Source: a virus (lineage: Duplodnaviria > Heunggongvirae > Uroviricota > Caudoviricetes). Taken from it: a stretch of 5,201 nucleotides of DNA. A program made the position numbers and the translations under genes. The stretch lies in IMG/VR virus record IMGVR_UViG_638341084_000014; one strand, 5' to 3'. This document shows positions 4,084-4,485 of this stretch, piece after piece; the first letter of the stretch is position 1, and each line of letters starts with the position of its first letter. Below the pieces are notes generated by a model that saw only the letters and a program-made list of their open reading frames with translations, was not told the DNA's origin and did no database searches.

Positions 4084-4130
4084 TTTGCTGCTCCTCATCA
4101 TATCGACCCTGCAAGGTCGGTTGGTTTCTC

Positions 4131-4220
4131 CACAAAACAGAGAAGAACACCTGCGGTGGCAGCCGCCCGGATGGATTGGGTTATGAGCCCGTCGTCCGGT
4201 GATGCTCTTCTCTGTTTTGC
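4131..4220. repeat. Long-range inverted repeat (about 20 bp arms, 47-nt GC-rich spacer) within the GC-rich intergenic region
   Basis: Left arm 4131-4151 (CACAAAACAGAGAAGAACACC) pairs with right arm 4199-4220 (GGTGATGCTCTTCTCTGTTTTGC). A 16-nt core matches with one mismatch. Confidence 0.6.
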
Positions 4221-4485
4221 AAAAAAGGACGGTACCAGCCGGAAGCAAGGGTACAAACTGGTACCGCCAGGACTACACACAGCATAAAGTTGTGGTGCCG
4301 GGTGCCTCCCGGTGCCTGGCGAAGGTTGCACACCAGGCGGGTGGGTATCCACAGAAGGTCGACTGTCAGCCTCAACCTTAACCCGCGTGCGCTGAGCCGC
4401 ATTCACCACAACGCTAAGGATTCTCTCTGGTTGAAAATACTTAGCTGTTATGTGCCTGCTTTTAGCCACATCAGGCGAGGTGGAC

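Follow-up and report, generated by a model that had tools for sequence, protein, structure and literature searches.

What does a tightly packed phage operon hold in some 400 nt that contain no credible gene? The question is raised by positions 4084-4485 of a 5,201-nt stretch of viral DNA (IMG/VR record IMGVR_UViG_638341084_000014; the whole stretch is referred to here as the window), which represents the left arm of a SfV/CPS-53-like lambdoid prophage. The region lies between the start of yfdP and a moron cassette. An earlier note, made from the letters alone, had proposed either a structured RNA, as a small RNA (sRNA) or a leader, or a DNA site serving the divergent units, and had left the strand open. 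The first of these proposals is supported by a match to an sRNA family, by stems that covary across relatives and by conservation above that of the flanking genes without a coding signature; the strand is the minus strand. Overall, the region is probably, though well short of certainly, the conserved untranslated leader of the early-left operon, doubling as an sRNA precursor.

A modular RNA with covarying stems

A scan of the whole window against Rfam yielded a single match, to the sRNA family STnc100 (RF02076), on the minus strand only (4442-4219). The match extended over the full length of the model (positions 1-206) with 40.3 bits (E = 2.2e-6), the gathering score of 47 not being reached. 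Relatives likewise scored under the RF02076 threshold, with 40.6 bits for phiES15, 39.5 for SfV, 35.1 for ST64B and 34.4 for the Qin prophage of K-12. The fold of the region is made up of separate modules, with stems that covary among relatives. Read 5' to 3' on the minus strand from 4475 to 4084, these are first a junction motif, then a hairpin of 13 bp, the core of 124 nt and a 14-nt single strand, followed by a terminator with U6, an 87-nt hairpin, a small hairpin and the ribosome-binding site of yfdP:

4446-4475, minus: junction motif CCUGAUGUGGCUAAAAGCAGGCACAUAACA, the 5' edge of the conserved leader module
4413-4445, minus: 5' hairpin, 13-bp stem with one mismatch, loop AACCAGA, -13.2 kcal/mol, z = -4.6; abuts P1
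4289-4412, minus: STnc100-type ('type-2') core, 124 nt, five-helix junction
4412-4404 with 4297-4289, minus: helix P1, 9 bp
4401-4384, minus: helix H1
4379-4355 and 4352-4341, minus: two local hairpins
4338-4314, minus: helix H3
4312-4298, minus: helix H4
4314-4293, minus: invariant 22-mer CACCGGGAGGCACCCGGCACCA, exact in the window
4379-4373 with 4328-4322, minus: pseudoknot, AAGGUUG with the H3 loop CAACCUU
4270-4283, minus: single-stranded GCUGUGUGUAGUCC, 14 nt between core and terminator, candidate seed
4220-4268, minus: DicF-like intrinsic terminator, 11-bp G+C-rich stem GGCGGUACCAG / CUGGUACCGUC, 19-nt loop, then CUUUUUUG
4133-4219, minus: long hairpin, 87 nt, stem of about 24-26 bp with a branched tip, -51.1 kcal/mol, z = -6.4; candidate RNase III site
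4194-4176, minus: tip motif CGACGGGCUCAUAACCCAA, 19 nt
4081-4119, minus: small hairpin (4119-4104), Shine-Dalgarno sequence GAGGAG (4096-4091) and yfdP start codon (4083-4081)

The composition of the region was as the earlier note had described it, with a G+C content of 0.55-0.59 over 4001-4500 against 0.35-0.50 in the flanks. The repeats listed there were also recovered, and all of them are stems of a minus-strand RNA running in the same direction as yfdP. The long-range inverted repeat was located at 4133-4156 and 4196-4219 (24 nt, 83% complementary) and the perfect 9-nt inverted repeat at 4230-4238 and 4258-4266; a GCCTGG/CCAGGC pair was present, and of the three GGTAC motifs two are the arms of the terminator hairpin and one is its loop. 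What had been read as a tandem 10-bp repeat (CCGGGTGCCT and CCCGGTGCCT, 4298-4317) represents, on the opposite strand, hairpin H4 (CCGGGAGGCACCCGG) together with its flank.

Relative to shuffled sequences, structure in the 402 nt was beyond chance and strand-specific, with z = -5.3 for the minus strand and z = -2.8 for the plus strand. Individual minus-strand modules yielded z = -6.4 (long hairpin), -4.6 (5' hairpin), -3.3 (terminator region) and -2.5 (core), and the small hairpin at 4119-4104 was not significant alone (z = -0.8). P1 is missed when the whole 402 nt are folded as a single sequence and recovered when the core is isolated; the minimum-free-energy fold of the isolated core is identical to the centroid and agrees with the family consensus (P1, H1, H3 and H4). 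A tRNA or tmRNA in the window was discounted, ARAGORN having found none and Rfam having given no tRNA match.

Covariation was determined from an alignment of 57 non-redundant, diverse copies of the core, counting P1, H1, outer H3 and H4. RNAalifold recovered P1, H1 and H4 from these copies. Paired cells amounted to 95.3%, against 84% in column shuffles and approximately 45% when partners were slid, and both sides had changed in 11 of 23 pairs. The covariation score of 0.326, against 0.119, was reached by none of 500 shuffles. Among the changes, H1 differs between the two main types of core by three C-G to G-C swaps, H4 has gone from G-C to U-A in the Qin group and from C-G to U-A in Enterobacter, and H3, parsed sequence by sequence as 8-9 bp, occurs with 42 different stem sequences. 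The invariant 22-mer CACCGGGAGGCACCCGGCACCA was found exactly in at least 120 IMG/VR viral contigs comprising 32 otherwise dissimilar sequence clusters, and the 5' block of STnc100, UGGUGAAU, is also exact in the window. The central 124 nt belong to the STnc100/PasD superfamily of prophage RNAs, as a divergent member here termed 'type-2'.

In the majority form, type-1, H1 is CCCCCUGUGCGGAGGGG and each copy examined has a terminator at its end. In type-2, to which the window copy belongs, H1 is rebuilt as UGCGGCUCAGCGCACGCG and no promoter accompanies the core. Promoters scoring at least 8/12 at 3-16 nt from P1 occurred in 51% of type-1 copies, 7% of type-2 copies and 9% of shuffles, the distance from P1 being 7 nt in the best-scoring type-1 copies. 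A promoter of its own for the window core was rejected after both a consensus scan and position-restricted scoring, type-2 copies being at the level of shuffles. A third variant, undetected by Rfam, occurs in mEp460/Stx2c-type phages and possesses the same P1 and an H1-like hairpin, without H4; in mEp460 it occupies 4193-4333 on the minus strand, with P1 formed by GUUGUGGUGA and UCACCACAAC. The type-1 members STnc100/EcOnc27 and PasD have been reported as expressed, Hfq-associated prophage sRNAs, including expression in enterohaemorrhagic Escherichia coli (EHEC). Type-1 copies are located between Q and the holin/lysis genes, and EcOnc27/sRNA103 lies downstream of stx2B. A literature search found no publications on an sRNA of ST64B at the present locus.

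A pseudoknot that is absent from the Rfam model was found family-wide. Its partners are a segment (a) that follows UGGUG by approximately 26-30 nt and the H3 loop (a'), 14-16 nt before H3 ends on its 3' side. Pairings were counted by parsing each sequence; counting on fixed MAFFT columns was given up, as subgroups differ in register by 1 nt. With unrestricted windows 46 distinct a/a' pairings were obtained, mostly at the same two positions, and a separate parse of the H3 loop gave 39 combinations. With restricted windows the mean complementary run was 6.9 for a segment's own partner and 4.9 for foreign partners, and the observed value was attained in 0 of 2000 random re-pairings. Runs of at least 7 bp made up 60% of own pairings and 6-9% of controls. 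In the window AAGGUUG also has an alternative, local partner, CGACCUU, within the hairpin at 4379-4355.

Downstream of the core, GCUGUGUGUAGUCC is conserved beside terminators in phiES15, ST64B and the relatives L144, L142 and L137, either before or after the core, and the unit of motif plus terminator recurs in phiES15, ST64B, L144 and L142. The terminator stem spans 4268-4228 with U6 at 4226-4221; a simple terminator scanner misses this element because its loop is 19 nt long. ST64B has kept the terminator hairpin with different arm sequences. Against the DicF model (RF00039, threshold 48) the window scored 15.7 bits (E = 0.38, 201 nt searched), the L144 element 38.1 bits and bona fide K-12 DicF 76.7 bits, and the window element is therefore DicF-like and not a DicF member. 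The type of operon and the neighbouring core are as for DicF, the downstream gene being yfdP and not dicB or kil.

The 24 outer pairs of the long hairpin are maintained in 18 variants, with double changes from G-C to A-U in Salmonella and from G-C to C-G in Klebsiella, and the hairpin moves with yfdP into heteroimmune phages. Its tip motif CGACGGGCUCAUAACCCAA is nearly identical to the initiator tRNA anticodon arm of E. coli. In Klebsiella phage GZ7 a motif of this kind occurs immediately after tRNA-Arg, in the late region (3001-3051). No tRNA was predicted at the CGACGGGCUCAUAACCCAA site or at the GZ7 site, and the tRNA-Arg annotation beneath the Klebsiella match belongs to the neighbouring gene.

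The leader is modular, with mosaic recombination joints at 4269/4270 and at about 4483-4485. The mEp460-type phages share the window leader from 4269 leftwards, that is, the terminator and long hairpin, and combine it with a different sequence in place of GCUGUGUGUAGUCC and the variant core. Homology to SfV stops at approximately 4483, and the junction motif is common to SfV and phiES15 despite differing neighbouring sequence. Where the window has the 5' hairpin, ST64B and phiES15 have a hairpin of other sequence.

Part of the region was matched in 3008 of 5426 complete E. coli genomes, 1626 of which carry at least 80% of it. The type-2 core precedes kil in phiES15, tciA in phage P1 and yfdP homologues in Buttiauxella, and in K-12 it occupies the dicF-dicB spacer of Qin (2433-2642 of the Qin sequence). 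There the closing helix P1 comprises 21 bp, and a DicF of 72 nt would end inside it (position 2454 of the Qin sequence); the 72-nt DicF species has been attributed to RNase III (PMC9438474). A scan of genomes found genuine copies of the core only in Enterobacterales. A wider range was rejected: matches elsewhere lack H4 and mostly read like G+C-rich coding DNA, and are therefore ascribed to chance.

Although it does not encode protein, the leader is better conserved than its neighbouring genes. Alignment with Salmonella phage ST64B showed 80.5% identity over the leader, with mismatches distributed 23/15/22 by codon phase (p = 0.39) and indels of 1, 19 and 1 nt. By comparison, yfdP is 61% identical with an excess of third-position changes (p = 1.8e-8) and indels of 12 and 3 nt, and yfdQ is 59.5% identical with a similar excess (p = 1.5e-9) and indels of 6 and 3 nt. 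The frameshifting indels and lack of codon-phase bias uphold the earlier dismissal of open reading frames (ORFs) in the region. Some annotations nevertheless imply that protein is or once was encoded here, by a genuine small ORF or a gene now decayed. The RefSeq (PGAP) annotation of IHE3034 places a 'frameshifted hypothetical protein' pseudogene over window positions 4098-4409, a minus-strand ORF of 123 aa is present, and PHROG profiles, 3651 and 33599 among them, match translated frames with E values of 1e-13 to 1e-30. These matches, however, lie in different frames and antisense to yfdP; that to PHROG 3651 is divided over two frames and the remainder of the profile would run antisense to yfdP, and Pfam gave no match to the translated leader. 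The open frames are not alike in the window, SfV, ST64B and phiES15, and no intact colinear coding sequence was found in these relatives. As the leader DNA is conserved beyond real genes, spurious ORF calls upon it would cluster into 'families', and both the PHROG 'families' and the RefSeq pseudogene appear to be by-products of such calls on a conserved RNA. With a third-position signal of the order of 1e-8 in yfdP and yfdQ and none in the leader, a decayed gene or a genuine small ORF can be regarded as highly improbable.

Together, PHROGs 3651, 33599 and 38074 match frames on both strands within 3818-4402, comprising the leader and the antisense of yfdP.

Transcription and setting of the leader

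A repressor-controlled promoter, pL, is located upstream of the leader, beyond the opposite-direction moron gene. The window is 99.7% identical to phage PhiR49_1 over 988-5201, homology beginning at 988, and in PhiR49_1 cI and cro come next on the right side. In PhiR49_1 and SfV, pL (TTGACA-N16-CATAAT) lies beside the cI terminator and is overlapped by GGTACA-type half-sites resembling oR, which places it approximately 3-45 nt past the right end of the window. The early-left operon runs leftward on the minus strand in the order yfdP-yfdQ-yfdR-yfdS-yfdT-xis-int. The features surrounding the leader are as follows:

72-773, plus: IS66-family transposase fragment, adjoining the truncated integrase
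971-1282, minus: truncated integrase
between integrase and yfdP, minus: yfdT, yfdS, yfdR and yfdQ
3721-4083, minus: yfdP, 120-aa product, the same length as K-12 YfdP
4494-5127: moron cassette, with 26-nt inverted repeats at 4517-4542 and 5071-5096
4494-4506 and 4527-4539: duplicated TCCCCAACAACAA in the flank of the moron cassette
4554 (GTG) to 5069, plus: moron gene, 171-aa ORF
5095-5106, minus: rrn-type boxA GCUCUUUAACAA, at the start of the antisense-moron stretch, right after the 5108-5127 hairpin
5108-5127: moron terminator hairpin
5138-5201, minus: beginning of the pL transcript (~60 nt), 98% identical to the pL leader of SfV

A consensus scan of 3900-5201 found no sigma-70-like site. 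The motif at 4446-4475 was rejected as a minus-strand promoter, being a poor match, and in relatives fits the plus-strand moron promoter; the right edge of the region (4446-4485) corresponds to the -35 side of the plus-strand divergent-moron promoter in phiES15 and SfV. The suggestion of an operator/promoter complex for the divergent units was borne out only marginally, pL and oL lying next to cI past the end of the window. Operators within the GGTAC hairpin were likewise rejected, the segment being common to heteroimmune phages and the real oL being elsewhere. The suggestion of a recombination site received marginal support from the mosaic joints.

Before entering the leader, a pL transcript must cross an untranslated antisense-moron stretch of approximately 600 nt. 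The 26-nt arms could pair on this transcript, looping out the antisense moron. At 5095-5106 the minus strand carries GCTCTTTAACAA, matching 12 of 13 bases of the rrn boxA, which may shield the transcript from Rho. The exact 12-mer is restricted to phages with this moron cassette, and boxA was rejected as a general feature of the leader. The interval from pL to yfdP contains no N-like ORF, its single ORF being the moron gene, in the opposite direction. The product of this gene is predicted to contain a coiled coil and a CxxC...CxxC C-terminus and matches PHROG 1244 (unknown function); searches for it yielded no significant Pfam match (one weak, sub-threshold coiled-coil hit) and no PADLOC hit.

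With an IS66-family fragment beside a truncated integrase, the prophage copy in the window is probably defective. The yfdO-yfdP spacer of CPS-53 in K-12 was considered as a homologue of the leader and rejected, similarity to the window being limited to the ribosome-binding site. At 2800-2822, in the yfdQ-yfdR spacer, there is a G+C-rich hairpin (AAATGCCCCCGCAGGGGCATTT) that lacks a clear minus-strand U-tract. Beyond the leader, no strong intrinsic terminator was seen inside the operon. Outside the window, IsrK and the C4 antisense RNA were detected above their Rfam thresholds in SfV (10987-11175), ST64B (6732-6920), mEp460 (6675-6863) and a Stx2a phage (6730-6918), where the two RNAs precede an antirepressor-type gene of the early-right region.

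Possible functions of the leader

If the leader is also an sRNA precursor, the region would operate as follows. On loss of the repressor, pL transcripts would run through the antisense moron into the leader, where a large fraction would stop at the 4268-4220 terminator and a structured RNA of about 190-230 nt would be released. This RNA would probably bind Hfq, with the pseudoknotted body as a conserved scaffold and the single-stranded GCUGUGUGUAGUCC as the variable, target-pairing part. Read-through transcripts might be cut by RNase III in the long hairpin, and in relatives at the long P1 helices, so separating the sRNA from the yfdP-int mRNA. DicF, which arises from the K-12 dicBF operon through termination and processing by RNase E and RNase III, would provide the precedent (PMC9438474).

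A number of observations weigh against this model, every functional step of which is inferred. With STnc100 the score of 40.3 bits misses the gathering threshold of 47, with the DicF model the window reaches only 15.7 bits, and covariation in the long hairpin derives from few independent changes, in 2 pairs. The seed lacks significant complementarity to the ftsZ translation start (79% of shuffles were as good), in a crude test in which bona fide K-12 DicF was not significant either. In several relatives (Qin, L144, Lelliottia, Buttiauxella and Enterobacter) the core is directly followed by a ribosome-binding site and gene without a terminator, an arrangement which a role in cis as a 5' untranslated region fits better than a released sRNA. 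Finally, since pL is repressed in the lysogen, the RNA would be made only on induction, unlike type-1 STnc100 copies with their own promoters.

It is conceivable, if rather unlikely, that the core acts in cis, either making RNA polymerase resist the downstream terminator or controlling the stability or translation of the first gene, and so gates, with no N protein, the toxic or recombination genes kil, dicB and yfdP...int. Its orientation is invariably sense, and its place is an early-operon leader, next to a terminator of DicF type and immediately ahead of the first gene; this position recurs in the unrelated yfdP, kil, dicB and tciA operons, and the core abuts the ribosome-binding site in the relatives named above. 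A terminator that sits between promoter and operon requires read-through, for which no N-like gene is available between pL and yfdP, and the two partners of AAGGUUG (local CGACCUU and H3-loop CAACCUU) would permit a conformational switch. Against this, about half of the type-1 copies have sigma-70-like promoters of their own, type-1 copies have their own terminators and they are reported as sRNAs in EHEC. Type-1 cores also precede lysis genes, which suppression of termination would cause to be transcribed in the lysogen. The five-way junction and pseudoknot are unlike the two stem-loops of put, and further strong intrinsic terminators were not seen within the operon. A more general proposal, which is held with greater reservation, is that the STnc100/PasD/'dicF-dicB spacer' core is a discrete pseudoknotted domain of ~120 nt that docks a conserved host machine and acts in cis. 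The machine would be RNA polymerase, the ribosome or an RNase, and the dock would be the invariant P1/H4 sequence, which consists of three CACC repeats around a GGAGG-containing hairpin.

The repeats might alternatively serve as DNA, as operators, a promoter complex or module-boundary sequences bound by protein or used in recombination. The mosaic joints at 4269/4270 and ~4483-4485, the identity of the 22-mer in unrelated contexts (a possible recombination anchor), the overlap of the right edge with a plus-strand promoter in relatives and the resemblance of the GGTAC motifs to this phage's operator half-sites are all consistent with such a role. The stems, however, pair through G-U and double changes, a strand-specific signature of RNA. 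The GGTAC segment is 97% identical in heteroimmune phages with TTGCGC-type operators, its half-sites are wrong in orientation and spacing, and the real oL/pL is elsewhere. A DNA-level element is thus improbable, and a leader that serves as an sRNA precursor remains the preferred explanation.

Recognition of the leader as an RNA would clean up prophage annotation, in which this widespread element is not annotated as such. The STnc100/PasD family is extended to a promoter-less, operon-embedded subgroup and its structure gains a pseudoknot supported by covariation. The family is also tied to dicBF of K-12, where the closing helix of the core coincides with the reported RNase III cut making the 72-nt DicF. 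The model offers a concrete scheme for early-left expression across a strong terminator in phages without an N gene. If the host-docking proposal were true, Enterobacterales phages would place one such domain in early and late operons alike, and the early-left core might be an N-independent processive antiterminator, or a processing or anti-decay device, gating kil, dicB and yfdP-int.

Comparison with known systems

The closest counterparts are the STnc100/PasD sRNAs, with which the window shares the exact UGGUGAAU and CACCGGGAGGCACCCGGCACCA, helices P1, H1, H3 and H4, the loop-junction pseudoknot, a Rho-independent terminator at the end and carriage on prophages of Enterobacterales. It differs in its sub-threshold score, rebuilt H1 and want of a promoter, in lying within the early-left leader of pL and not between Q and the lysis genes, and in having a DicF-like terminator as its 3' part with a different single-stranded stretch. 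With the dicBF operon of Qin (ydfABC-dicF-dicB) it has in common a repressor-controlled lambdoid early operon with a long non-coding stretch, long helices suited to RNase III and an intra-operon terminator releasing an sRNA, which in the window is proposed; in K-12, moreover, DicF is immediately followed by a type-2 core. The two differ in order, the core preceding the terminator in the window and following DicF in Qin, and also in the seed sequence and the length of P1 (9 bp against 21 bp in K-12).

The put sites of phage HK022 are two adjacent stem-loops of ~70 nt in the pL and pR leaders that make RNA polymerase resistant to terminators. Like put, the core is a promoter-distal element of a pL leader situated ahead of a terminator; unlike put, it is a 124-nt five-way junction with a pseudoknot. 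The nut/N system of lambda combines boxA and a boxB hairpin close to the promoter with N as the first pL gene; the present phage has no N gene at this position and an rrn-type boxA lies upstream, at 5106-5095, where it travels only with the moron cassette, a further difference from both put and nut/N. The core also differs from both in that its type-1 relatives are self-contained, terminated sRNA genes. The StxS sRNA of Stx phages is the pR' transcript stopped at tR', pR' being constitutive. As with StxS, a leader transcript ending at an intrinsic terminator ahead of the operon could double as a regulatory RNA, although pL of the window is controlled by repressor and there is no sequence relationship between the two.

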